Notes under the pieces: model-generated
The model's database searches: none
What the model saw: only the letters and a program-made list of their open reading frames with translations
What the model was told of the DNA's origin: nothing
Shown: piece by piece, positions 5,355 through 31,051 of the stretch
Layout: each line of letters opens with the position of its first letter
Numbering within the stretch: the first letter of the stretch is position 1
Position numbers and translations under genes: made by a program
Assembly: GCF_018336915.1 (NCBI RefSeq)
Contig: NZ_CP064923.1
Location: forward strand, 5,550,001-5,582,000
Length of the DNA stretch: 32,000 nt
Reading direction: 5' to 3'
Origin: Acaryochloris marina S15
Lineage (GTDB): Bacteria; Cyanobacteriota; Cyanobacteriia; Thermosynechococcales; Thermosynechococcaceae

Positions 5355-6173
5355 GTGATGACGATGAAAATTAGTGAACTGATTGAGTGGTTTGAAAGCT
5401 GGGCTAACCCGTCCTGGCAGGAGAAGTGGGATAACTGTGGTTGGCAGATTGAACCGGGGATTTTGGATCAACCGGCTCGGGTACTGGTCTGTTTAACGCC
5501 AACCTTAGCGGTGATGGAAGAAGCGATCGCACTTCAGCAGCAGAACACACCTATTAATTTAATTTTTGCCCATCATCCCTTAATTTTTGGCCCTCTGAAG
5601 TCAGTACAAAAGGGCGATTCCATTGGCGATATGGTTCGCCTCTCCATCACTCATCAGATTGGGGTTTACAGTGCCCATACCAATTTTGATCAAGTCGCAG
5701 ATGGCACAGCAGATGTATTGTCTCAACTCTTAGAGCTGCAAAATGCCGAACCCGTAGAACCAACCCAAGATGGCCTGGGATACGGTCGCGTCGGCAATCT
5801 TAAACCCGCTCTAACACTGCAACAGCTCCTCGCCAACATTCAAGCTACTCTGAAGCCTACCGATTTATTGGTATCACCCACAGCAGATCGACAGCAGTCT
5901 ATTGAACGGGTCGCAGTACTCGGAGGGTCTGGAGCTAGCTATATCTCAGCCGTGAGCCAAACAGGTGCCCAGGCATATCTGACTTCGGACTGTAAGTTTC
6001 ATCAATTTCAAGAGAGTCGCGATCGCAACCTGATTCTGATTGATGCTGGACATTATGCGACAGAGCGGCCTGCCTGTGAACGCTTAGCCCAAAAATTTAC
6101 CAACAAGGGAGTGGAATGGGCGCAACTGAGCCAGTCAGACGAAGATTTCCGCAATTTTTGGGCTGCCAACTAG
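5355..6173 (+). CDS. Nif3-like dinuclear metal centre protein (YbgI/GTP cyclohydrolase 1 type 2 homologue)
   Basis: Motifs LIFAHHPLIF, AHTNFD and IDAGHYATERP. The length (~270 aa) is typical. The start could be 5355, 5358 or 5364. Confidence 0.85.
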   Translation: MMTMKISELIEWFESWANPSWQEKWDNCGWQIEPGILDQPARVLVCLTPTLAVMEEAIALQQQNTPINLIFAHHPLIFGPLKSVQKGDSIGDMVRLSITHQIGVYSAHTNFDQVADGTADVLSQLLELQNAEPVEPTQDGLGYGRVGNLKPALTLQQLLANIQATLKPTDLLVSPTADRQQSIERVAVLGGSGASYISAVSQTGAQAYLTSDCKFHQFQESRDRNLILIDAGHYATERPACERLAQKFTNKGVEWAQLSQSDEDFRNFWAAN

Positions 6174-6206
6174 AAGGACCAACAATACAACTGCCACAGT
6201 TTTGAG

Positions 6207-6662
6207 ATGAAACAGGTTTGCCAAATTTATAGGCAACTCCCTACAAAACTCACCAACAGCATTGAGATAGTCGGTATCGTCATTGGGCTGTTGATGATGG
6301 TGATACTGGCAAACATAGCTGCAGATGGTTCGGTATTGGCCTTGATCATCTTGTCTCTCGTTACCCTGGCCCTTATCAGCGCTCAGCCTCTCCAGCATTG
6401 GCAGAAACGACGACATGCCCAAAAGCAGTACAAACTGCGTCAGAAAAGGGTTGATCAGCTACTGGCAGGACGATCCCGAGCAGACATTTTGAAGGCATCA
6501 CCTTTCAGTTATGGTCGTTGGCCCGATGGTGACGACACTTACGTAATTGATGATCGGAGGATAGGTAAGATTATTCACCAAGTCTGGAGTCCAGCAGAAG
6601 CAGAGTTATGGATCTTAGAGCAAACGTTACATGAAGAAGAAAACGGCGACGAAAGAAAATAA
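6207..6662 (+). CDS. Hypothetical membrane protein (two predicted TM helices + charged C-terminal domain)
   Basis: 151-aa ORF with the hydrophobic stretch IVGIVIGLLMMVILANIAADGSVLALIILSLVTLALISA followed by a basic region. It is preferred over the antisense ORF 6135-6422. No family was recognised. Confidence 0.5.
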   Translation: MKQVCQIYRQLPTKLTNSIEIVGIVIGLLMMVILANIAADGSVLALIILSLVTLALISAQPLQHWQKRRHAQKQYKLRQKRVDQLLAGRSRADILKASPFSYGRWPDGDDTYVIDDRRIGKIIHQVWSPAEAELWILEQTLHEEENGDERK

Positions 6663-6997
6663 GCACACCACGCCTATACAGTTGATTCAACGTTGCTAAT
6701 ACCAATAAGCATCAAAAAGTGTAATTTTGATTTGCTATGAAACTTTGCCAACAAAGGGTTTTACAAATTTTATGATTACGCTTTTAGGCTCAAATTGGTA
6801 TAACCTCAACCTTGATGGATTCAACCCTAGTTCCTTCAATTGGGCTATCACTGCCATACCGTCATCAGAGATAGGCTCAATCAACTTACCCATACATTCA
6901 AGTTTGTTGACCCCGCTTCTGAGCTAAGCTAGTAATGCTTATACACCGCTCGACGACATATATCGGTCGTCGTTTATTGATTTAAAGGAGACAGCAC

Positions 6998-8305
6998 GTG
7001 GTCAGGATTCTCCGGTTGTCAGAGATGACATCTGAAGAACTCGCTTCCATCAAACGACGGGCCGAGTTAGATATTGAACAGGCGCTAGCTGTCGCCAAAG
7101 AAGTCATTGACGAGATTCGCGCTGACGGTGATCAGGGCGTGATCAAATACGTCCGCAAATTTGATTTTCCCGGTGCCACAACCGAAAATCTGAAAGTGAC
7201 CGAAGCCGAATTTGCCGTTGCCCGCGAGCAAGTCGAGCCCGAAATCAAAGCCGCGATTGAGCAAGCCTATCGCAACATCAAAGAAGTGCACGAACGGCAA
7301 ATGCCAGAAGAAGTGCAGCTTGCCGAAATCGATGGCGGCGTCTTTGCTGGGGAAAAAGTCACCCCTATTGCCAGTGCTGGACTATATGTGCCTCGGGGTA
7401 AAGGCTCCTTTCCCTCAGTGATGCTGATGCTCAGCGTGCCAGCGGTCGTAGCCGGAGTGGAAAGAATTGTTGTCTGTACACCACCGGACAAAAACGGCAC
7501 CGTAGAGCCTGCCTCTCTTGTCGCAGCTGAACTGGCAGGCGTGAAAGATGTATACAAATTAGGCGGCATCCAAGCAATCGCAGGCATGGCGATCGGTACT
7601 GACACAGTACCCAAAGTCGATAAAATCACTGGACCTTGCAACGTCTATGGCTCCGCCGCCAAGCGCCTGCTCTACGGCACCGTTGATGTTGGCTTACCCG
7701 CTGGTCCTAGTGAATCGATTATTCTTACGGACGAAACCACTGACCCCCGGATTGCAGCCTTAGATCTGCTGGTAGAAGCAGAGCATGGTCCCGACTCGGC
7801 AGGCTTACTGGTTACCCACAGCGAAGACCTAGCCAAGGCCGCGTCCAAACATGCAGACGACTATATGCAGCAGTTGCCTGAATGGCGCAAAAACTTCTGT
7901 CAGAAGGGCCTGTCTTCTTATGGCGGTATTATTCTCACCTCCAGCCTGGAAGAATCGATTGATTTCCTCAACGATTATGCCCCTGAGCATTTAGAAGTTC
8001 TGGTACAAGACCCCCTCAGCGTTCTCGGCAAAATCAAGAATGCTGGTGAAATTCTCCTCGGTCCCTATACCCCCATTCCAACGGCCAACTACTGCATTGG
8101 CGTCAACGCCATTCTGCCTACGGGAGGCTTTGCTCGCTCCTACTCGGCGGTATCGGTATACGACTTTCTCAAGCGCACTGGCATTGGTTATTTAACAAAA
8201 GAAGGCTTTGATCGCTTGGGCCATACGGCTCAAACCTTGGCGGAGCATGAAGACTTCCCGGCCCATGCCATGGCCATTCGTGAGCGTAAGAACCTGCTCC
8301 CGTAA
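6998..8305 (+). CDS. hisD: Histidinol dehydrogenase
   Basis: Full-length 435-aa match to the HisD pattern (YVPRGKGSFPS, KITGPCNVY, EAEHGPDS, APEHLE). The GTG start is preceded by AAGGAG 7 nt upstream. Confidence 0.95.
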   Translation: MVRILRLSEMTSEELASIKRRAELDIEQALAVAKEVIDEIRADGDQGVIKYVRKFDFPGATTENLKVTEAEFAVAREQVEPEIKAAIEQAYRNIKEVHERQMPEEVQLAEIDGGVFAGEKVTPIASAGLYVPRGKGSFPSVMLMLSVPAVVAGVERIVVCTPPDKNGTVEPASLVAAELAGVKDVYKLGGIQAIAGMAIGTDTVPKVDKITGPCNVYGSAAKRLLYGTVDVGLPAGPSESIILTDETTDPRIAALDLLVEAEHGPDSAGLLVTHSEDLAKAASKHADDYMQQLPEWRKNFCQKGLSSYGGIILTSSLEESIDFLNDYAPEHLEVLVQDPLSVLGKIKNAGEILLGPYTPIPTANYCIGVNAILPTGGFARSYSAVSVYDFLKRTGIGYLTKEGFDRLGHTAQTLAEHEDFPAHAMAIRERKNLLP

Positions 8306-8324
8306 GGGGCGGTGGAGGGTTACC

Positions 8325-9548
8325 GTGTCCGATCAACTCCTGTATCAGATTCAGACGTTACAGTTTTCTGATCAGGCAGCGGCGAATGCCCTGCTGAAGG
8401 ACTTCGTCAATGACAATTTCCCTTTCAATGTGGAGCAGGTACAGGTACGTCCTTCGGCGGTATCCCTTAACTCCATTAATGGATTTCTGCATACCGTGGA
8501 AGGAGACAAACTGTTCTTCAAAACCCACGTTGAACCCCAAAGCCTGATTCATGAGTATTACAACTCCACGATCATGGCAGAGGCAGGCTATCCCATTATT
8601 CAGCCCATTTTTAGCTCAACAGAATGGGGTAAGCAGCTGCTGGTCTATGAGTTTTTTGAATCCCCATCTCTGTTTGATGTGGCTCGTCAGATTGAAACGG
8701 GACAGCGAGGCGGAGCTGACCAGATTATTGCCCTGCAGGAAAAAGCAGACCAAGACCTGTGGGCCATCTATCAGCAAACCCTGCAGCCTTTATCAGCCGA
8801 AGACCATGCCGAAGTCCCCATTCACCAACTGTTTGTCCATCGCCTAGTCGGAGGACGATATCACGAGTTTTACGCAGGCAAAGAAGTCAAGCTACCAGAA
8901 CACACCCTGAACTTTGACCCACTCGCTCAACTAACCTGGCAGATTAATGGCATACCTTACCAAGACACCCTAGCTGACATTATTCAAACAGCCAGTCAAA
9001 AGCTTGTCCCAACCTCTACTCCCTCTGTTGTCGGTCATGGTGATGCTCATAATGGCAATGTGTTCGTAGATGAAGACGCAGAAACCCTGATCTATTTTGA
9101 TCCTGCCTTTGCCGGACGGCATTCACCCTTTTTAGATCTAACGAAGCCGATCTTCCATAACGTATTTGCGATTTGGCTGTATTTCCCCCAAGAGATCGCC
9201 AAAGACCTATCCATTAACTTAGAGATCTCAGCAGACCAGATCCAAGTGGATCATGATTTTCGACCATCAGCTATACGTCTAAGATTCCTGCAATCAAAGC
9301 TCATGCATGTACTCCAGCCCTTGCTTGAGCGCCTAAAAGCTTCTGGTCAACTCCCTGAAACCTGGCGACAGGAACTCAAGTTGGCACTGTTTTGCTGTCC
9401 TTTTTTAACCATGAACCTCTGCGATACCCAACGCTTTCCGCCAGAAATTACGCTACTGGGCTTATCCCTAGCAGTAGAAATGGGCAGTTCTAGCACCTCC
9501 CAGAACCAGAGCATTTTAGATACTGCCCTGGACCAACTCAACATATAA
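8325..9548 (+). CDS. APH/choline-kinase-like phosphotransferase family protein
   Basis: Catalytic-loop motif HGDAHNGNVF followed by IYFDPAF (a DFG-like D). The track ORF starts at 8208 inside hisD. The GTG at 8325 is in frame, follows a GGAGGG Shine-Dalgarno at 8314-8319, and lies 19 nt after the hisD stop. Confidence 0.75.
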   Translation: MSDQLLYQIQTLQFSDQAAANALLKDFVNDNFPFNVEQVQVRPSAVSLNSINGFLHTVEGDKLFFKTHVEPQSLIHEYYNSTIMAEAGYPIIQPIFSSTEWGKQLLVYEFFESPSLFDVARQIETGQRGGADQIIALQEKADQDLWAIYQQTLQPLSAEDHAEVPIHQLFVHRLVGGRYHEFYAGKEVKLPEHTLNFDPLAQLTWQINGIPYQDTLADIIQTASQKLVPTSTPSVVGHGDAHNGNVFVDEDAETLIYFDPAFAGRHSPFLDLTKPIFHNVFAIWLYFPQEIAKDLSINLEISADQIQVDHDFRPSAIRLRFLQSKLMHVLQPLLERLKASGQLPETWRQELKLALFCCPFLTMNLCDTQRFPPEITLLGLSLAVEMGSSSTSQNQSILDTALDQLNI

Positions 9549-15686: not shown

Positions 15687-19037
<3,351 letters not shown>

Positions 19038-19546: not shown

Positions 19547-19827
19547 AGTCTCGCTACAGGAATGAATTGAAAAACGGCCCAGTGCTCTCGTACCATACTA
19601 TGACGGCACCTCTGACAGAAAGAGTCGTTGGGCTGCAAAGACATCCTTTTGGGAGGGAAGAACCATCGATCGTCCACCCTCCATAACCGTTACACCAGCC
19701 TAGGTCACTCTTTAGGATTGGAACAGGTTCCCAGGGTCACCGTCTAAACAATCAACACGTTATGCCCAAAAAGCATACCTACTCAGTTCCCCTACAGTTA
19801 CTGTTATTGTTTTTCAAATCACAACTT

Positions 19828-20334
19828 ATGCAAAAATTTCTGCTTTTTTCATCCATACTTCTAGCCCCTTTAGCAGCTACCCCAGTGCTGCATGCTCAGG
19901 AAACGGTTTCTCACCTTCCCCTTCCCTATGCTCAACCCTTAGTCATCGCTCAAGACGCAGTAAAAGCCGACCCCTTCTTTTTGACCCGTGCCAAGAATCT
20001 GGCACGGCAAGCAGCCGAACGAGAAAACGGTGGCCTTAGTCAGTACCGGGCTGAAACATCGATGTATGGCCCTGCCATCGATTCCCCTCATGTCGAGAAT
20101 GAAGATGGCAGTGTCACCTTCTCCTTCAAAGGGGGTGCTCCTGGGTTTGTTTCCCCGACTCTAGAAACAGTAGCCACCGTTGCTCCTGCAGGCATCGTTA
20201 CGATCGGTTACAACGGTCCCATTCGTCCCGCAGCCGCTCAGCCCTCCGAGCCTGACCCTACCCCGGCAGCCCCAGCTTCCATTCCCCAGGTTCCATCTCA
20301 AATTATTGACCAAATCAAAGATTTAGTTGAATAG
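19828..20334 (+). CDS. Secreted hypothetical protein with one copy of an unassigned ~87-aa domain
   Basis: The internal ATG at 19828 gives the signal-peptide-like N-terminus MQKFLLFSSILLAPLAATPVLHAQ. The domain DPFFLTRAKNLARQAAERENGGL...GGAPGFV...YNGPIRP spans 19969-20229. Confidence 0.7.
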   Translation: MQKFLLFSSILLAPLAATPVLHAQETVSHLPLPYAQPLVIAQDAVKADPFFLTRAKNLARQAAERENGGLSQYRAETSMYGPAIDSPHVENEDGSVTFSFKGGAPGFVSPTLETVATVAPAGIVTIGYNGPIRPAAAQPSEPDPTPAAPASIPQVPSQIIDQIKDLVE

Positions 20335-20503
20335 ACGCCTTATCCATCGGATCTAGCGAAAGAACGCAGAACAACGCGTTTCTATCACCAGCCATCTGAA
20401 TTCATCGCCCCCACAGATAGGCATCCCAGACGATAGCCTATGGGTGTTTTCTGCCTTTACTATGGGCAGATGGTTTTGTTTATCTCTCTTTAGGGTTGTG
20501 TCT

Positions 20504-21484
20504 ATGCGCCAGTTTGTTGCTTTTTCAAAGGTTTTATTGCTTCCCCTTTGTTTGGGAATAGGGCAGGTAGCGGTCTATGCCCAATCCTTACCCTCCGTCA
20601 CTCCTCCTCCTCAAGCCACAGATCCCTTTTTCCTGACCCGGGCAAAGAACCTAGCCAGACAAGCAGCCGAACGACAAAATGGGGGTCTCAGACTTTATCG
20701 TGCAGAAGCTGCCATGTATGGGCCTGCCATAGATGCGCCCAGTCAACAGAATTCCGACGGCAGCGTCACCTTTACCTTCAAAGGCGGAGCACCTGGCTTC
20801 GTCACGCCCACAGTAGAGACTATCGCGACCGTTACCCCCCAAGGATTAGTCAGTCTCCAATACAACGGTCCTTTACGCTCTGTTGCCCTTGCCAAGGTCA
20901 AGCCCACCCCCTCTCAAACTCAAGAGCCAACACAACCCCTTAATCAATCGACCAACTCCTTAGAAAAGCCTGTTTTAATCCCTAGCTCCCAACCCTTACT
21001 GCCTAATTCATCTCCACCCTTACCCGCTCAGCCAAAGGCACCAAGCACTCGCCCTCCCAGCTCTGGCCTACCCACTCTACAGCCAGCACCCGTCATCCCC
21101 CCCAGGCAAACATTGCCACCTATCGCGACACAGCCAACACCTGCTATTACCCCCCAGAGCACTCCCAGCCGCCCAGTTCAGACCTCACCAGCATCTATCC
21201 AAAACACATCTATCCAAAACGCTGATTTCTTTCTCTCTCGCGCCAAAAACTTGGCTAGGCAAGCCGCTATCAACGCTAACGGGGGTTTAGCCCAGTATCG
21301 ACCTGAAACTTCAATGTTTGGTCCTGCTGCTGGCACCCCACATCAAAAAAATCAAGATGGCAGTATCACCTTTAGATTCCAAGGAGGAGTCCCTGGCTAT
21401 CGCAATCCCACTGTAGAATCTGTGGTCACAGTGACCCAAAATAGCACTGTCACTGTTACGTATAATGGCCCCATTCGACCATAG
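20504..21484 (+). CDS. Secreted hypothetical protein with two copies of the same ~87-aa domain separated by a Pro/Ser/Gln-rich linker
   Basis: The ATG at 20504 gives the signal peptide MRQFVAFSKVLLLPLCLGIGQVAVYAQ. Domain copies lie at 20621-20881 and 21224-21481. The linker at 20882-21220 is ~30% proline. Confidence 0.7.
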   Translation: MRQFVAFSKVLLLPLCLGIGQVAVYAQSLPSVTPPPQATDPFFLTRAKNLARQAAERQNGGLRLYRAEAAMYGPAIDAPSQQNSDGSVTFTFKGGAPGFVTPTVETIATVTPQGLVSLQYNGPLRSVALAKVKPTPSQTQEPTQPLNQSTNSLEKPVLIPSSQPLLPNSSPPLPAQPKAPSTRPPSSGLPTLQPAPVIPPRQTLPPIATQPTPAITPQSTPSRPVQTSPASIQNTSIQNADFFLSRAKNLARQAAINANGGLAQYRPETSMFGPAAGTPHQKNQDGSITFRFQGGVPGYRNPTVESVVTVTQNSTVTVTYNGPIRP

Positions 21485-21609: not shown

Positions 21610-22056
21610 ATGGGTTTGAGCTTCAAGCACTGGAGTGGGGGTATAGCACTAGCCACCTTGATTCTGACAGGGAATGGCGTTGCACTAGCTCAAGAAGTTG
21701 ATCCTCTCGATCGGCCATTACGTCAACCCACCATATCTGAAACGCTGGATCGGCAGTCCAACCTCGATAGTTACTGGGAAGATGAGTCCCTCGGAGGGGA
21801 TGCTAAGTTTCTTTTCAGTGTGGGTACACCAGAAGGAGCCATTCGAAGCGCTGCTGAGCGTGTTGAAGTGATCTACAAAGATTTACTACAGCAGCAAGAT
21901 GATGATTTCCCCACCGTTCGCACCCGCGATTTAGCCAATCCTTACGCAACATCATTGCTAGAACTGCAAAGCCTATCAGGCATTGGGAACTCTGAACCCG
22001 AGTCTACTCCCCAATATATTCCTGCTGTAGCCCCTGCTGTTCCTGCGCTTTGGTAG
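21610..22056 (+). CDS. Secreted hypothetical protein
   Basis: The ATG at 21610 gives MGLSFKHWSGGIALATLILTGNGVALAQ, which is signal-peptide-like. The mature part is acidic. No family was recognised. Confidence 0.55.
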   Translation: MGLSFKHWSGGIALATLILTGNGVALAQEVDPLDRPLRQPTISETLDRQSNLDSYWEDESLGGDAKFLFSVGTPEGAIRSAAERVEVIYKDLLQQQDDDFPTVRTRDLANPYATSLLELQSLSGIGNSEPESTPQYIPAVAPAVPALW

Positions 22057-22089: not shown

Positions 22090-22138
22090 ATAGCTAAAGC
22101 GCCCAACTTGCATCTCACAAGTTGGGCGCTTTAGCTAT
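22090..22138. other. Perfect 21-bp stem / 7-nt loop hairpin between a convergent CDS and the tRNA
   Basis: ATAGCTAAAGCGCCCAACTTG (22090-22110), loop CATCTCA, then CAAGTTGGGCGCTTTAGCTAT (22118-22138). It sits 33 nt after the 21610-22056 stop and 9 nt beyond the tRNA 3' end. No canonical U-tract follows on either strand. Confidence 0.7.
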
Positions 22139-22147
22139 TGAAATCAA

Positions 22148-22220
22148 TCCAGGGTGCAGGAGTTGAACCTGCCTAGGGCGAATTATGAGTTCGCTGCCTC
22201 AACCGCTCGGCCAACCCTGG
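22148..22220 (-). tRNA. tRNA with anticodon CAU (elongator Met, or Ile2 if lysidine-modified), 73 nt, no encoded CCA
   Basis: Hand-folded from the reverse complement: acceptor CCAGGGT/ACCCTGG (7 bp), D-arm GCCG-AGCGGTTG-AGGC, anticodon arm GCGAA-CTCATAA-TTCGC, 5-nt variable loop CCTAG, T-arm GCAGG-TTCAACT-CCTGC, discriminator A. It is not initiator-like: it has a 1-72 pair and no GGG/CCC in the anticodon stem. Confidence 0.85.
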
Positions 22221-22447: not shown

Positions 22448-23179
22448 GTGATCTTGGCAAAAGCGAATAAGGCCTCAACCAACAAACCCCGAAATCGATT
22501 CAAGATTGATCCATCTATCAAACGCACAGTATTACTCCTACTGTTTATGTTGATAGTCGGATCCATCTGTGGTGCCGTAGGTTATGTGTTCGCCCGTCAA
22601 TCTTTAAAAGGCATTACACAACCTGCCACAAACCCATTTCTGAAGGAGTCTGACGATTTAGATCGTCGCCCACGCCAAGGGGCCGATTTTCTTAACGAGA
22701 AAGACCTAATTGCCAAAGTTAAGTCTCAGACTAACGGTGCCAATATCGCCAAAGAGAAACAAAAAACAGCACCCAAACCGAAGAAACCCAAATCTTCTGA
22801 CACCAAAAAGGATCAAAAATCACAGCCGAAGTCTCTCCCGATCAAAGTCAACAATCAGGGAATGAACTTTGAGGTCAAGTCTTTAGCCCGTGAGGATGAT
22901 ACGCTCATCCTTAACGTTGCCTTACAGAACAGTAGCGATGACACAATTCAGTTTGTCTATACTTTTTTAGATATTACTGACGATCAAGGGCAAGCCTTGT
23001 TCTCAGAAATTCGAGGGTTACCAACTGAGTTTAAACCTAAAGGAGAAATCTTCTTTGGCACAATCAAAATCTTGGATGTTCCGCCGGAAACCGTTGAAAA
23101 AGTCTCGATTTCCTTAAACGACTATCCTGACCAGAACGTCAAACTAGACATTCAAAATATCCCAGTCGCTGATGAGTAA
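22448..23179 (+). CDS. Membrane-anchored hypothetical protein with a Lys-rich linker and a C-terminal beta-rich domain (DUF4352-like?)
   Basis: Single TM helix (VLLLLFMLIVGSICGAVGYVF), a linker KEKQKTAPKPKKPKSSDTKKDQKSQPK, then a ~110-aa domain. GTG start per the track; the start is uncertain. Confidence 0.55.
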   Translation: MILAKANKASTNKPRNRFKIDPSIKRTVLLLLFMLIVGSICGAVGYVFARQSLKGITQPATNPFLKESDDLDRRPRQGADFLNEKDLIAKVKSQTNGANIAKEKQKTAPKPKKPKSSDTKKDQKSQPKSLPIKVNNQGMNFEVKSLAREDDTLILNVALQNSSDDTIQFVYTFLDITDDQGQALFSEIRGLPTEFKPKGEIFFGTIKILDVPPETVEKVSISLNDYPDQNVKLDIQNIPVADE

Positions 23180-26902: not shown

Positions 26903-27874
26903 ATGCTTCCCTTGATGAGCGATTCTTTAGCCTTACCCATTACCCTAACCGCGAGGCAAATAGCCCAAGGCTTTGGGCAACAGCAATCCACACCTGAGAA
27001 ATGCCAGCAAGTCTATCTCAACACCCTAGCGGTCCTTGCTGTTAAAGAGTATCTGGCATTGATGGAAATCCCCTGCAATCTGGAAGCTAGCGATAGCTGG
27101 AATCCAGTAGTGCGACTCTGTGCAGACGTTGCCGATCTCCTCATTCCGGGTATGGGCAGTTTAGAATGTCGCCCAATTTTACCTGGCACGCCTACCTGTC
27201 TCTTGCCCCCTGAAGTCTGGTCGGATCGCGTCGGTTATTTAGTTGTCGTCATTGATGATCAACAGCGGAGGGCTCGCATCCTAGGATTTACGCCCACTGC
27301 TCAAGCCGGTCAAATCGCCATAGAGCACTTACAACCCCTCGAATCCCTATTGGCTCATATTAGTGAATTCATGTTGGTAGACACCAAACCACCAACATTC
27401 GTTCAAACTGATCTGGGTCAATGGCTACAAGGTATCTTTAATCAAAGTTGGCAAGTAGTTGAAGACCTATTACAACCCTCAACCCGAGAGCCAGCATTTC
27501 ACTTTAGAAGTGCAGCCACAACGTCAACCGTTGAGCTAGATGACGATGCCGTTCAAATTAAGCGGGCCAAATTAGTCAAATTCAAAAATGATGCAGAAGA
27601 AATTCCCCTCGTCTTGATCATGAATCTTCTGCAAACTGAAACATATAGCCAGCGGATGCTCTGTGTTCAGCTCCGACCCGCAGGTCAATGCACATCATTA
27701 CCCGCTAATTTAGTGCTTAGGGTGCTGGACAACCAGCACAATACATTTTTAGAAGCCCAATCACGACAAGCGGACAACTACTTACAGCTTGAGTTCAGCG
27801 GATTACCAGGAGAACAGTTCCATCTCGATCTAGAGCAAGGCAACCACATCCTAACTGAAACATTTATTATTTAG
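26903..27874 (+). CDS. DUF1822 family protein (cyanobacteria-restricted, function unknown)
   Basis: The N-terminal LPITLTARQIAQGFGQQQSTPEKCQQVYLNTLAVLAVKEYLALMEIP is the characteristic DUF1822 opening. It starts 23 nt after the sigma-like gene. Confidence 0.75.
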   Translation: MLPLMSDSLALPITLTARQIAQGFGQQQSTPEKCQQVYLNTLAVLAVKEYLALMEIPCNLEASDSWNPVVRLCADVADLLIPGMGSLECRPILPGTPTCLLPPEVWSDRVGYLVVVIDDQQRRARILGFTPTAQAGQIAIEHLQPLESLLAHISEFMLVDTKPPTFVQTDLGQWLQGIFNQSWQVVEDLLQPSTREPAFHFRSAATTSTVELDDDAVQIKRAKLVKFKNDAEEIPLVLIMNLLQTETYSQRMLCVQLRPAGQCTSLPANLVLRVLDNQHNTFLEAQSRQADNYLQLEFSGLPGEQFHLDLEQGNHILTETFII

Positions 27875-27928
27875 AAATTTTTGCCCTGGCTGCATAGAAA
27901 GGAGATGCCTCTATAAAGAGAACAAGCC

Positions 27929-30900
27929 GTGGATAAATTAGTCGTATTGCGCATGGGAGAAGGTAGCTTTACACAGGGTTTTCCTGTGACCCTTCAAGTT
28001 GGCAAAGAAAACGACAGACCCTCGACTGAAATTGTTGGTTTTCTTCCTCCCAATCCTAATATTCCTCAGTATTATCAAGGGTGGCAAACGGCTTATCTCA
28101 ACTTGGGACTAACCACCCGTTTAGATGCTCCCACAGAACAATTAACCAACATCGATTGGCAAGAACTCCAAATCAACTGCGAACAGGCAGCCCACACACT
28201 TCATCATGCATTAGATCAATGGCTTCTAGCAGACCCCTTTCGACCTGTTCGGGATAAATGGCTGGAGCAACTTTCTCTACAAGATCACATCCGGATTATT
28301 TTGCAAACGGATAATCCGCAACTGCAGCGCTTACCCTGGCATCAGTGGGAACTTTTAACACGCTACCCCTTTGCCGAACTGGTCTTGAGTGCTCCAACCT
28401 ATGAAGGCATTCAGCGCCAATCTAGCTCCACTGCTGGCATCAAGATTCTTGCCATTTTGGGGAGTAGCCAAGGCATCAATACTCAAGCAGATCACGGGTT
28501 ACTGAATCAGCTTCCTAACGCAAATGTGACGTTTCTGGTAGAACCACAGCGGCAAGAACTCACCGATCAGCTATGGGATCAAAACTGGGATATTTTATTT
28601 TTCGCAGGCCATAGCCATAGCTCTAATCCCTGTGACACAGGCCATATTTGCCTCAATGCTCATGAAACACTGAATATCAATCAGCTGAAGTATGCTCTGC
28701 AGCAAGCCATTAGCAAAGGGTTACAGCTTGCTATTTTCAACTCTTGTGACGGTTTAGGACTCGCCCATCAACTGGCTGACATCCATCTGCCAGCCATGGT
28801 GATCATGCGCGAACCCATTCCTGATCAAGTAGCCCAATATTTTCTCAAGTACTTCTTAACTGCTTTTTCCAAAGGCAAACCTTTTCATTTAGCCGTCCGC
28901 GAAGCTCGGGAACGACTCCATGATCTTGAGCCTCATTTTCCATGTGCCACGTGGCTGCCGATTATTTGCCAAAATCCAGCCGAGATTCCACCCACATGGC
29001 AAAAGCTGAGTAAAAGTGATGGAGACGACTATTCTTTATGGCGCCATGACAATGACTCAGCAGCTCAAATCGTCACGATTGTCTTCACCGATTTAGTCAG
29101 CTCTACTGCCATTAAACAGGCTATGCCTGGCCTGGATGTCACAACCCGTAACCACCAGTATTACGACACAATTCTCCAACCCCACCGCCAACGCGTCACA
29201 GCTAGCTTAACGGCCTTTGGCGGTCGCTTGGTCAAAACAGAAGGGGATGGCTTTCTTATAAGCTTTCCAGGTGCCATGCAGGCTGCACAATGGTCCATCG
29301 CCCTGCAACAGCACCATGAACAAGATCCGATTACGACACCGTTTGGCCCCTTACAAGTCAGAATCGGTATGCATACAGGCAGCCCCTTATTGAAGGCTGA
29401 AGATCATGACTACATTGGCCAAGAAGTAGACTATGCCTATCGCATTTCTGACTTAGCTGATGGTGGACAAATCCTACTGTCAGAAGTCTCAGCCGTGTTG
29501 CTGCGCAATGCAGGCCTAACGGATATTACGGTGTATGACCATGACCATTGCTCCCTCAAAGGAATCGGCTGTGTACCTGTTTTCGAAATTCTCTGGGACA
29601 ATCGGCAACCCCGTCCGGTGCGAGATACACCATCCACGGTCTCGAATTCTCGCCATCAAGACCGACAGTCACCGGAAGTAGAACAAACTTTGCCAACTGC
29701 TGTGGCACCAATTGTTGCGGAACTGCCTCTAGAAAAAGTATCTCTCTTTTCTAAAGTTCACCGTTTTTGTCGCCGTCCTCTTTTATCCGCCTTGCCTACC
29801 AGTCTATGTTTGACAGCTGCCATTATTGGCATTCGAGGGCTAGGCATTCTACAGCCCATAGAGTTTTGGGCATTTGATCAGCTCCTGCGCCTCAGACCAA
29901 ATGAAGGTCCCGATCCCAGGCTATTAATTGTATTGGTCACGGATAAAGATATTCAGGCCCAAGGGGATCAGACGAAGCGGAGTTCTTTAAATGATCCAAC
30001 CCTGACTCGACTCCTGACTCAGTTAAACAAGGCTAAACCCCAGGCCATCGGCTTAGACATTTACAGAGATTTTACCGTTGATCCGAACTACCCCCAACTC
30101 GCGACCCAACTCAAGAACAATGAGCGCTTAGTAGTTCCCTGTAAAGGGAGTGATTCATCCAGTAATACAGATGGCATCGCGCCTCCAACTGAAGTACAAG
30201 CACCCAATCGCATCGGTTTTACAGATTTTATCGAAGATGGAGATGGGGTGTTACGCCGACATATCCTTCATATGAACCATGAGCCTGCCTCTCCCTGTCA
30301 AGCGTCTTTCTCCTTCGGTTCTCTGTTAGCCTTCCATTACTTGGAACAGCAGTCACCCCAGACATTTTCCCTCAAGTTTGCTGAACCCGAAGGCCACCCC
30401 TTGGAGTTGCAGGTTCAAACGGATCAACCTGGTACCGGAACAACACGAACCACAATCTTTAAACAACTACAGCCCCATGGCGGCTATCAAGGGATTAACG
30501 ATGACCGCATGAGAGGCTTGCAATTAATGCTAAATTATCGAGCCTTAAAGAGACCGACAGACATTGCCAAAACGGTAACTTTGGAGCAAGTACTGGCGGG
30601 ACAAGTTAATGCCAATGCGATTAAAGACAAGGTTGTTTTAGTGGGAGTCCAAGCGAGTGGATCTGGAGATTTTTGGTCTACTCCCTACGGTGCTGGCCCC
30701 ACTCAGAAGGTGGCAGGTGTTTTTGTGCAGGCTCATATGGCCAGTCAGATCATCAGTGCCGTTGAAGATCAACGTTCCTGCTTCAAAATATGGCCTCAAT
30801 GGGCTGATGGTCTTTGGATCTGGGGCTGGGCAATGATGGGCGGCATCGTTGCTATTGTCTTCAAACTCACAACTCGCACCGGTGTGATCAGCACTGTTTT

Positions 30901-31051
30901 AGTGAGTGGATTGTTCAGCCTCTGTTTATGGGGCCTGATACAGGCCATCTGGATGCCGCTCATACCGTCCCTGATAGCTTTTGTCATCACGACCGTTGCG
31001 GTGCTGTTAGTGCGCACCAAAAAAATTGATCATGATCATCCAGCTTCTTAA
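27929..31051 (+). CDS. Multidomain membrane protein: N-terminal CHAT (caspase-like) protease domain, class III nucleotide cyclase domain, TM helix, CHASE2 sensor domain, three C-terminal TM helices
   Basis: GTG start. CHAT core spans ~aa 170-350 with the His/Cys dyad FFAGH(228)SH (28610-28612) and IFNSC(273)DG (28745-28747). The cyclase spans ~aa 381-556 (VTIVFTDLVSST, VKTEGDGFLISF, VRIGMHTG, GQEVDYAYRISDLADGGQILLS). TM1 is aa 617-640. CHASE2 spans ~aa 641-955 (LRLRPNEGPDPRLLIVLVTDKDI, AIGLDIYRD, GFTDFIEDGDGVLRR, VVLVGVQA). The C-terminal TM helices are aa 958-1028. Confidence 0.8.
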   Translation: MDKLVVLRMGEGSFTQGFPVTLQVGKENDRPSTEIVGFLPPNPNIPQYYQGWQTAYLNLGLTTRLDAPTEQLTNIDWQELQINCEQAAHTLHHALDQWLLADPFRPVRDKWLEQLSLQDHIRIILQTDNPQLQRLPWHQWELLTRYPFAELVLSAPTYEGIQRQSSSTAGIKILAILGSSQGINTQADHGLLNQLPNANVTFLVEPQRQELTDQLWDQNWDILFFAGHSHSSNPCDTGHICLNAHETLNINQLKYALQQAISKGLQLAIFNSCDGLGLAHQLADIHLPAMVIMREPIPDQVAQYFLKYFLTAFSKGKPFHLAVREARERLHDLEPHFPCATWLPIICQNPAEIPPTWQKLSKSDGDDYSLWRHDNDSAAQIVTIVFTDLVSSTAIKQAMPGLDVTTRNHQYYDTILQPHRQRVTASLTAFGGRLVKTEGDGFLISFPGAMQAAQWSIALQQHHEQDPITTPFGPLQVRIGMHTGSPLLKAEDHDYIGQEVDYAYRISDLADGGQILLSEVSAVLLRNAGLTDITVYDHDHCSLKGIGCVPVFEILWDNRQPRPVRDTPSTVSNSRHQDRQSPEVEQTLPTAVAPIVAELPLEKVSLFSKVHRFCRRPLLSALPTSLCLTAAIIGIRGLGILQPIEFWAFDQLLRLRPNEGPDPRLLIVLVTDKDIQAQGDQTKRSSLNDPTLTRLLTQLNKAKPQAIGLDIYRDFTVDPNYPQLATQLKNNERLVVPCKGSDSSSNTDGIAPPTEVQAPNRIGFTDFIEDGDGVLRRHILHMNHEPASPCQASFSFGSLLAFHYLEQQSPQTFSLKFAEPEGHPLELQVQTDQPGTGTTRTTIFKQLQPHGGYQGINDDRMRGLQLMLNYRALKRPTDIAKTVTLEQVLAGQVNANAIKDKVVLVGVQASGSGDFWSTPYGAGPTQKVAGVFVQAHMASQIISAVEDQRSCFKIWPQWADGLWIWGWAMMGGIVAIVFKLTTRTGVISTVLVSGLFSLCLWGLIQAIWMPLIPSLIAFVITTVAVLLVRTKKIDHDHPAS

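Follow-up and report, generated by a model that had tools for sequence, protein, structure and literature searches.

A cyanobacterial family of small exported domains repeated in two adjacent genes of Acaryochloris marina S15

Small accessory proteins of the PepSY type (PF03413), including DbfQ from Vibrio cholerae, PA2658/PA2659 from Pseudomonas aeruginosa, UipA and lanpepsy, are exported through the Sec pathway, contain one or more domains in which a helix packs on a sheet, and carry no catalytic residues. DbfQ binds the periplasmic sensor domain of the kinase encoded beside it, and adjacency of PepSY and kinase genes is strongly enriched across bacteria (PMC12714742). A second group of cystatin-like inhibitors and prodomains (phytocystatin 2mzv, latexin 1wnh, sialostatin L2 3lh4/3mwz, the fungalysin prodomain 4k90_B and the vibriolysin FTP-PepSY propeptide 3nqz_A) lays a helix across a four-stranded antiparallel sheet, and is found in tandem copies in latexin and phytocystatin. 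LysM, SPOR and SLH modules, in turn, occur as one to three small units behind a signal peptide on Pro/Ser/Thr-rich linkers. Here we describe a domain of the cyanobacterium Acaryochloris marina S15 that shares the small size and, apparently, the Sec export and lack of catalytic residues of the first group, resembles the second in its predicted topology and tandem copies, and has the overall architecture of the third.

The domain occurs three times in two adjacent genes (gene 1 and gene 2) within a 32,000-nucleotide stretch of the genome (contig NZ_CP064923.1, positions 5,550,001 to 5,582,000, forward strand), which we refer to as the window. We conclude that it represents a previously undescribed, cyanobacteria-restricted family of a familiar kind, the small exported helix-on-sheet accessory modules. 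We further propose, as a tentative reading to which we give slightly less than an even chance, that it is an exported, non-enzymatic domain that binds and modulates the extracytoplasmic part of another protein.

An 87-residue domain repeated in two adjacent genes

A first-pass annotation of this DNA had claimed three copies of a ~87-residue domain in two tandem genes, and an alignment without gaps confirmed both the copies and their coordinates, with one small correction: copy 3 ends at 21481 as given, but its best start is 21221 (for 87 residues), 3 nucleotides upstream of the noted 21224. The start codons chosen for genes 1, 2 and 3 (ATG at 19828, 20504 and 21610) are those of RefSeq and yield proteins of 168, 326 and 148 residues. 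These are exact matches to the A. marina S15 proteins QUY42464.1 (WP_249369621.1), QUY42465.1 (WP_212663631.1) and QUY42466.1, all annotated as 'hypothetical protein'. An alternative upstream ATG at 19762 would lengthen gene 1 to 190 residues; its orthologues start at the position equivalent to 19828. The features are as follows.

19828..20334, + strand: gene 1, an open reading frame of 168 residues comprising a signal peptide, a short spacer, one domain copy and a Pro-rich tail
19828..19896, + strand: predicted Sec/signal peptidase I (Sec/SPI) signal peptide of gene 1, MQKFLLFSSILLAPLAATPVLHA, then QE after the cleavage site
19969..20229, + strand: domain copy 1, 87 residues, aligned without gaps with copies 2 and 3
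20230..20331, + strand: C-terminal tail of gene 1, 34 residues, a Pro/Ala-rich spacer with the conserved PSQIIDQIKDLVE at its end
20504..21484, + strand: gene 2, an open reading frame of 326 residues comprising a signal peptide, copy 2, a 113-residue linker and copy 3 up to the stop codon
20504..20581, + strand: predicted Sec/SPI signal peptide of gene 2, MRQFVAFSKVLLLPLCLGIGQVAVYA, then QS after the cleavage site
20621..20881, + strand: domain copy 2, 87 residues, whose nearest copy in the window is copy 1
20882..21220, + strand: inter-domain linker, 113 residues, of Pro/Ser/Thr/Gln-rich composition
21221..21481, + strand: domain copy 3, 87 residues, the most divergent, of a 'second-domain' type
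21610..22056, + strand: gene 3, 148 residues, a secreted-type neighbour lacking the domain

Copies 1 and 2 are identical at 75% of residues, copies 1 and 3 at 63%, and copies 2 and 3 at 57% (65, 55 and 50 of 87 residues, compared with 6 on average and at most 17 in a control of 5000 shuffles); the corresponding DNA identities are 69, 61 and 59%. Each domain comprises 87 residues with no Cys, and His appears at one variable position only. The linker between copies 2 and 3, which had been described as ~113 residues rich in Pro, Ser and Gln, is exactly 113 residues long; 25% of it is Pro, Pro, Ser, Thr and Gln together make up 61%, and it is probably disordered.

The first-pass annotation had also noted that 10 of the first 13 codons differ between copies 1 and 2 and that every difference is synonymous, and had taken this as the mark of an old duplication under constraint. 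The codon count was reproduced (10 of 10 differences synonymous), and the wider comparison bore out its interpretation. Synonymous sites are saturated between the copies (proportion of differing synonymous sites, pS, 0.76-0.80), and the ratio of the non-synonymous to the synonymous proportion (pN/pS) is 0.21, 0.31 and 0.37, with every bootstrap upper bound below 0.5. Because this saturation makes the ratio of non-synonymous to synonymous substitution rates (dN/dS) uncomputable between paralogous copies, we took it instead from orthologues in other Acaryochloris genomes. Values for whole genes were 0.07-0.09 (gene 1), 0.13-0.15 (gene 2) and 0.10-0.17 (gene 3), while those for the individual domains were 0.007-0.027 (copy 1), 0.016-0.041 (copy 2) and 0.05-0.075 (copy 3). 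Outside the domains (linker, gene 1 tail and signal peptides) the range was 0.15-0.36, including 0.23-0.36 for the gene 2 linker, relative to which the domain values are roughly ten-fold lower, and 0.15-0.17 for the gene 1 tail. Insertions and deletions between orthologues were found outside the domains only. Constraint is therefore concentrated in the repeat unit, which is an ancient duplication under strong purifying selection.

The relationships of the copies indicate the order in which they arose. The nearest relatives of copy 2 are the domains of gene-1-type proteins and the first domains of two-domain proteins, and those of copy 3 are the corresponding second domains, from which it follows that the two-domain architecture came first and that gene 1 arose later as a copy of its first domain. 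The tandem of gene 1 and gene 2 is present only in the A. marina clade and in one metagenome-assembled genome (MAG) of the Acaryochloridaceae. At the corresponding locus of two Acaryochloris MAGs (L008 and L010, ~5650-8000) there is no gene 2 and gene 3 directly follows gene 1, so either the A. marina clade acquired gene 2 at this position by insertion or these lineages have lost it. The final 13 residues of gene 1 (PSQIIDQIKDLVE, 20293-20331, + strand) are kept in all of its orthologues, while the preceding Pro-rich spacer varies; this terminal motif is absent from all other family members, and may form a short docking helix.

A cyanobacterial family of exported modules

Scans of the products of genes 1 to 4 (genes 3 and 4 being the next two protein-coding genes downstream) against Pfam and NCBIfam assigned no family. 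A Pfam scan of 54 domain instances at expectation values (E) up to 10 gave scattered sub-threshold matches only, and a sequence-profile search of the PDB matched no chain. The description of the domain as unassigned thus stands, in that it belongs to no curated family. A word-seeded search of 5.8 billion proteins recovered 75 relatives, of which all named ones are cyanobacterial. With a profile built from an alignment of the 54 extracted domain instances, drawn from several cyanobacterial families (A1), an exhaustive HMMER search of 1.84 billion representatives returned 313 clusters (50% identity) at E<=1e-3 and 210 at E<=1e-10, and a scan of one genome per species returned 215 relatives. We inspected the best 150 of the 313 clusters and the best 80 of the 215 genome hits; these 80 are all labelled Cyanobacteriota and include Acaryochloridaceae, Thermosynechococcaceae, Leptolyngbyaceae, Coleofasciculaceae, Microcoleus, Tychonema, Roseofilum and others.

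One member is encoded on an 8.9-kb soil-MAG contig that has been binned as Candidatus Sericytochromatia (L052, 6001-6246), where the neighbouring genes are uninformative. Candidatus Sericytochromatia is a lineage without thylakoids, and if the binning is correct this member would argue against a strictly lumenal role.

The A1 alignment contains 13 invariant positions and has the consensus RAKNLARQAAE..NGGL..YRAE..M.GP...N.DGS.TFTF.GG.PG...T.ESVVTV...G.V.V.YNGP.R. The motifs FFLxRAKNLARQAA and GGxPG had initially been regarded as invariant. The RAKNLARQAA core indeed is, or nearly so, as are the NGG turn and G60/P63, but FFL and the full GGxPG are kept in close relatives only.

The leaders of the window proteins, previously described as signal-peptide-like, have the expected organization of a short basic n-region, a hydrophobic h-region and a c-region with a small-x-small site (a heuristic reading of the sequence). 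Cleavage is predicted after LHA, VYA and ALA in genes 1, 2 and 3, respectively, each followed by Gln. The gene 2 leader, inspected by eye, contains no twin-arginine motif, and its LPLC is a poor fit to a lipobox. Across the family, a signal-peptide-like N-terminus is present in 182 of 202 full-length members (~90%, by a crude test for an h-region and a small-x-small site).

Experimental support for export comes from a homologue. In Synechococcus sp. PCC 7002, proximity labelling aimed at the thylakoid lumen yielded 123 proteins enriched by PsbU-APEX2. One of these, SYNPCC7002_A0238 (A0238), was detected in both PsbU-APEX2 replicates (mean enrichment 6.02), was missing from both samples of cytoplasmic GFP-APEX2 and has no homologue in Synechocystis (PMC7880944). 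The supplement to that study gives A0238 as UniProt B1XMR3, 35.705 kDa, with a SignalP site NQA-QT at 44-45; SignalP 5.0 on the long annotated start places the Sec/SPI site at 44-45 at a low probability of 0.33, and a second prediction column reads 'OTHER' (PMC7880944). We identify A0238 with ACA98250.1 of PCC 7002 (P0387, 332 residues), since the computed mass of that protein (35.705 kDa) and its NQA-QT site at 44/45 both agree with the supplement. It consists of a signal peptide and three tandem copies of the domain, each recognized at E ~1e-40. One family member is thus expressed and located outside the cytoplasm, a statement that applies to this homologue rather than to the window proteins. 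The labelling places it in the thylakoid lumen and/or the periplasm, not specifically in the envelope or sheath, and the two compartments are inseparable here because the APEX2 list mixes them. A literature search on the MBIC11017 locus tags and on A0238/B1XMR3 found nothing beyond PMC7880944.

The lumen and periplasm proteomes of cyanobacteria contain many uncharacterised proteins, one of which is now placed in a compact, strongly constrained family. Synechococcus sp. PCC 7002 is genetically tractable, and with its member already expressed and exported, the function of the family is directly testable there.

Among 216 family proteins the domain is present in one copy in 139, in two copies in 73 and in three copies in 4, and the last domain ends no more than 3 residues from the C-terminus in 153 (71%). 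Additional domains are rare, heterogeneous and each seen once: Calx-beta, tetratricopeptide repeats (TPR) with Trypsin_2, pentapeptide repeats, SYLF/Ysc84 and a borderline BsuPI. This organization bears on the suggestion, made in the first-pass annotation, that the domain is a binding module of the cell envelope, in which case it would bind peptidoglycan, an outer-membrane component or an exopolysaccharide, with the repeats supplying avidity as in LysM and SPOR proteins. The beads-on-a-string arrangement of one to three copies, the Pro/Ser/Thr/Gln-rich linkers and the position of the domain at the extreme C-terminus in 71% of members, including a 2729-residue giant surface-type protein with Calx-beta (P0216), would all fit such an anchor, and the invariant Asn, Arg, Gln and Tyr may be of the kind typical of sugar-binding sites. 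However, sequence and structure searches revealed no similarity to known carbohydrate- or peptidoglycan-binding folds (and none in sequence or fold to LysM, SPOR or SLH), the sole localisation data come from a lumen-targeted probe, and cell-wall or polysaccharide genes do not recur among the neighbours examined. We therefore consider an envelope anchor unlikely.

Several database records assign members of the family to the purine nucleoside permeases (NUP, PF06516): the name is attached to P0026, P0031, P0034, P0036, P0040, P0051 and P0080 in RefSeq or GenBank, and A0238 was given the same description in its published listing (PMC7880944). The best of these named homologues, P0051, scores 16.7 bits against the NUP model (cutoff 27) over 70 of its 313 positions (135-204), which amounts to a weak local resemblance below threshold, across less than a quarter of a model of the wrong architecture. 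The other named homologues that were scanned and both window proteins gave no NUP match at E up to 1, and NUP was matched by 1 of the 54 domain instances (E = 0.007). The family consists, moreover, of soluble repeat proteins with no membrane-spanning segment besides the signal peptide. With the best match below threshold and none in the other named homologues scanned, the label is an annotation artefact, and we give a permease identity virtually no credence; the 'purine nucleoside permease' annotations, including that of A0238 in the published lumen proteome, should be dropped.

A second misleading resemblance is to the T7 gp2.5 single-stranded DNA-binding protein (PF21265), which was matched marginally by 11 of the 54 domain instances at E up to 10. 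The two have a local motif in common, a helix followed by Y..E..M....(D/E)N.DG..TF.F(K/R). The gene 1 protein and copy 1 score 13.1 and 14.3 bits, respectively, against a cutoff of 27. This identity was rejected: the match covers 63 of 169 positions, the domain is modelled as a helix and a four-stranded sheet rather than an oligonucleotide-binding (OB) barrel, the family proteins are exported, and gp2.5 does not appear among the structural matches. Two distant members, P0036 and P0040, just reach the gathering score of PF21265 (27-29 bits) through Y..E..M....DNGDG..TF.FK, and this match, which is present in public precomputed Pfam tables, could seed misannotation.

Predicted fold, gene neighbours and candidate partners

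AlphaFold2 modelled the domain from the A1 alignment with high confidence (predicted local distance difference test score, pLDDT, 93; predicted template-modelling score, pTM, 0.83), as a helix at residues 7-24 followed by four strands. Between helix and sheet lies an irregular loop of 20 residues that holds, in the model, most of the invariant residues (NGGL..YR.E..M.GP). Judging from helical periodicity, the invariant polar residues N15, R18 and Q19 would occupy the helix face opposite the Ala-rich packing face, which suggests an exposed conserved surface adjoining the conserved loop. Independent modelling of a compact two-domain homologue gave a pLDDT above 90 for each domain, below 50 for the linker, and an overall pTM of 0.45. 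The low pTM and the disordered linker indicate that tandem domains behave as independent beads; packing into a rigid pseudo-dimer was not supported.

Foldseek searches of the PDB and BFVD with the single-domain model returned nothing at E <0.09. Its best match by template-modelling (TM) score was the fungalysin prodomain 4k90_B (query TM-score, TMq, 0.51; root-mean-square deviation 3.1 over 81 columns), and cystatins matched at TMq 0.40-0.43. For the two-domain model the top three PDB matches were phytocystatin 2mzv, the fungalysin prodomain 4k90_B and latexin 1wnh (E 0.012-0.016, probability 0.63-0.89; E 0.013 and probability 0.89 for 4k90_B), each of them a tandem protein of the cystatin fold that serves as a protease inhibitor or prodomain, and the vibriolysin propeptide 3nqz_A followed at E 0.13. 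The cystatin-like group thus provides the top-ranked structural neighbours of two independent models, and we regard the models as consistent with a cystatin/prodomain-like alpha-beta(4) fold class, the similarities agreeing with one another but lying below significance (E 0.012-1.3, single-domain TMq <=0.51). A new fold, as opposed to a diverged cystatin or PepSY domain, is also conceivable. Weak single-domain matches to type IV pilin and BamE (TMq ~0.3) were set aside, as the proteins have ordinary Sec leaders with no prepilin leader or lipobox, and neither match recurred with the two-domain model.

These matches raise the question of whether the domain is itself an inhibitor of the cystatin, latexin or prodomain kind that restrains lumenal or periplasmic proteases, its tandem copies paralleling those of multi-domain cystatins and latexin. 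The leading Foldseek matches of the two models (2mzv, 4k90_B, 1wnh and 3nqz_A in one list; 4k90_B, 3mwz, 3lh4 and 2mzv in the other) point in this direction, as do two fusions: in P0173 a copy at the N-terminus is fused to TPR repeats and a peptidase of the Trypsin_2 type, and P0089 has a proteinase-inhibitor domain of the BsuPI type that barely passes the cutoff (23.2 bits, with 22.9 required). The compartment of A0238 holds at least 10 proteases (PMC7880944). Against this, none of the structural matches reaches significance, and alpha-beta(4) is a simple and widespread topology; each fusion was seen once in a family of 313 clusters; and no protease gene recurs among the neighbours examined. 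The family consensus and its invariant columns also lack the inhibitory motifs of cystatins (the N-terminal Gly, the QxVxG hairpin and the PW hairpin), its conserved residues being placed in the helix and the helix-sheet loop rather than in hairpin loops, and its motif RAKNLARQAA-x3-NGGL-x2-YR has no counterpart in cystatin-like inhibitors or prodomains. Protease inhibition accordingly seems to us an improbable function for the family as a whole.

The strongest positional clue to a partner comes from loci other than that of the window. At 12 distinct loci an RppB-like histidine kinase with two transmembrane segments, orthologous from locus to locus, is followed on the same strand, after 6-353 bp, by a two-domain member (L012, L013, L015, L016, L019, L022 (=L086), L028, L031, L033, L034, L051 and L069; in the numbering of these loci the family match is at ~6001 and the kinase just upstream). 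This position directly downstream of a sensor kinase resembles that of the DbfQ gene beside a two-component system. The loci belong to Acaryochloridaceae, Thermosynechococcaceae, Petrachloros, Stenomitos and Lyngbya confervoides, and their kinases are 61-89% identical to each other. Against the RppB/NrsS model the kinase gives a full-length alignment that scores 306 bits, short of the 400 required for an equivalog. The block reads HemJ, RppB/NrsS-like kinase and two-domain member on one strand, often with QueE and QueC downstream on the opposite strand. In PCC 6312 a NarL-type response regulator gene is directly upstream of the family member. De novo clustering of neighbours in 82 loci produced only the kinase/HemJ/QueE block and thus no universal partner, and four complete-genome neighbourhoods had nothing in common.

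RppB takes its name from a role in the regulation of photosynthesis- and pigment-related genes. The conserved place behind an RppB-like kinase offers a concrete partner hypothesis, in the strongest version of which the family members would be cyanobacteria-specific lumenal or periplasmic co-sensors that dock on the extracytoplasmic loop of the kinase and supply or gate its input signal, having been duplicated and uncoupled from the kinase locus in Acaryochloris. A genuine location in the thylakoid lumen would then mean that signals are sent from within it. We regard this specific version as unlikely. If the kinase link is true, the recently described gating of sensor kinases by small periplasmic proteins would extend to cyanobacteria, where an unrelated domain would perform it; otherwise, a tidy new domain without an assigned function remains.

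The identity of the kinase also invites the idea that the domain binds a metal or cofactor outside the cytoplasm, where it would buffer the ligand or act as co-sensor to a kinase of the heavy-metal type, by analogy with CopM-CopRS, UipA or lanpepsy. Besides the end-to-end alignment with RppB/NrsS, the next-best model for the kinase is the heavy-metal sensor kinase subfamily TIGR01386; M37, Y31 and N25 of the domain are invariant and E34 is highly conserved; many members from beyond the Acaryochloris clade have His at position 38 (..E..MHGP..); and links between PepSY proteins and metal binding have been described (PMC12714742; PMC9988556). That His is Tyr, Tyr and Phe in copies 1, 2 and 3 of the window, however, and with one Met per domain and no Cys there is no obvious metal site. 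The kinase falls short of the RppB equivalog cutoff, and metal-transport genes were absent from the four complete-genome neighbourhoods. Metal or cofactor binding is therefore, in our view, very unlikely.

We believe that a non-catalytic binding role is the most reasonable reading of these observations, although the absence of catalysis, the binding itself and the identity of the partner are each what we infer. In the mechanism we propose, genes 1 and 2 would encode Sec-exported proteins with one and two copies of the domain, and each copy would fold alone, its N-terminal helix packed on a four-stranded antiparallel sheet. Cleavage by signal peptidase would leave the modules outside the cytoplasm, in the thylakoid lumen and/or the periplasm, as beads on flexible Pro/Ser/Thr/Gln-rich linkers, where the domain would bind the extracytoplasmic part of a partner protein and modulate it in the manner of the small PepSY-type accessory proteins. 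Extra copies could provide avidity or bridging. The weak similarity to inhibitor and prodomain folds and the recurrent kinase neighbour favour a protein partner over an envelope polymer; such a partner would most likely be a sensor kinase or a protease, and the leading candidates would be the RppB-like kinase and an extracytoplasmic protease.

Several observations weigh against this binding role. No structural match is significant: all Foldseek E values exceed 0.01, and TM-scores for the two-domain model are 0.20-0.25. The conserved residues could be structural rather than surface-exposed. Pfam PepSY found 0 matches among the 54 domain instances at E up to 10, and hhalign of A1 against a shallow profile of five PepSY domains (9vy3, 4exr, 2lra) gave a probability of 0.4% and an E of 0.16. 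The window and the majority of family loci have no kinase neighbour; as HemJ shares the conserved block, the adjacency may simply be synteny inherited from one ancestral arrangement; and the orthology of gene 2 to the kinase-linked genes is weakly supported by domain identities. Finally, the proximity-labelling list includes periplasmic and plasma-membrane proteins, the relevance of which its authors call unclear (PMC7880944).

The likeness to PepSY proteins is accordingly one of kind. Membership at the sequence level was rejected, the profile scan and the profile-profile comparison both being negative, and stand-alone PepSY structures were absent from the Foldseek top 50 for both models. Unlike PepSY, the domain is ~30 residues longer and has a conserved 20-residue loop between helix and sheet, and unlike PepSY-kinase pairs, the window genes have no kinase neighbour.

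Surroundings of the tandem genes

The locus is syntenic with those of strains CCMEE 5410 and MBIC11017. The neighbours of the tandem in the window (ispF, a ROK kinase gene, the CTP synthase gene, gene 3, gene 4 and a CNNM gene) are conserved within Acaryochloris only. Gene 3, which had been singled out as a third secreted orphan, is a genus-restricted orphan: its homologues form 18 clusters, all at least 58% identical and all from Acaryochloris where named.

A terminator-like hairpin with a T-rich tail (20450-20470, + strand) lies in the 169-bp gap between genes 1 and 2 and suggests that the two genes are separate transcripts; terminator-like sites in the region are no more numerous than in shuffled sequence. 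Directly after gene 3, on the opposite strand, is a tRNA-Met(CAT) gene (22148-22220, - strand). Between the two, at ~22101-22137, a perfect 12-bp inverted repeat (GCGCCCAACTTG / CAAGTTGGGCGC) could serve as a terminator common to both; a consensus terminator scan missed it because no T-run follows it.

Gene 4 (22448-23179, + strand) encodes 243 residues, or 210 from a later start, in which a Lys-rich spacer connects a membrane anchor at the N-terminus with a beta-rich domain at the C-terminus. The product gives weak DUF3426 and SLAP-like profile matches only. Gene 4 comes after gene 3 in all 7 Acaryochloris-clade loci for which this flank could be examined, with a CNNM/CorC transporter gene downstream.

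Elsewhere in the window, ARAGORN called an unusually long tRNA-Gly(GCC) of 92 nucleotides (8880-8971, - strand) inside a long plus-strand open reading frame (8208-9548); the call is probably a false positive, or else the reading frame is spurious. In CCMEE 5410 two extra minus-strand genes, for a Uma2 family protein and a 188-residue protein, lie between the MOSC and CTP synthase genes (L001, 3165-4442), with none at the equivalent window positions 16326-16452. Further downstream in the window, a DUF1822 gene followed by a gene for a ~1040-residue protein (26903-31051, + strand) forms a conserved pair unrelated to the repeat domain, and the CCMEE 5410 counterpart of the ~1040-residue protein contains CHAT, CHASE2 and guanylate-cyclase domains.

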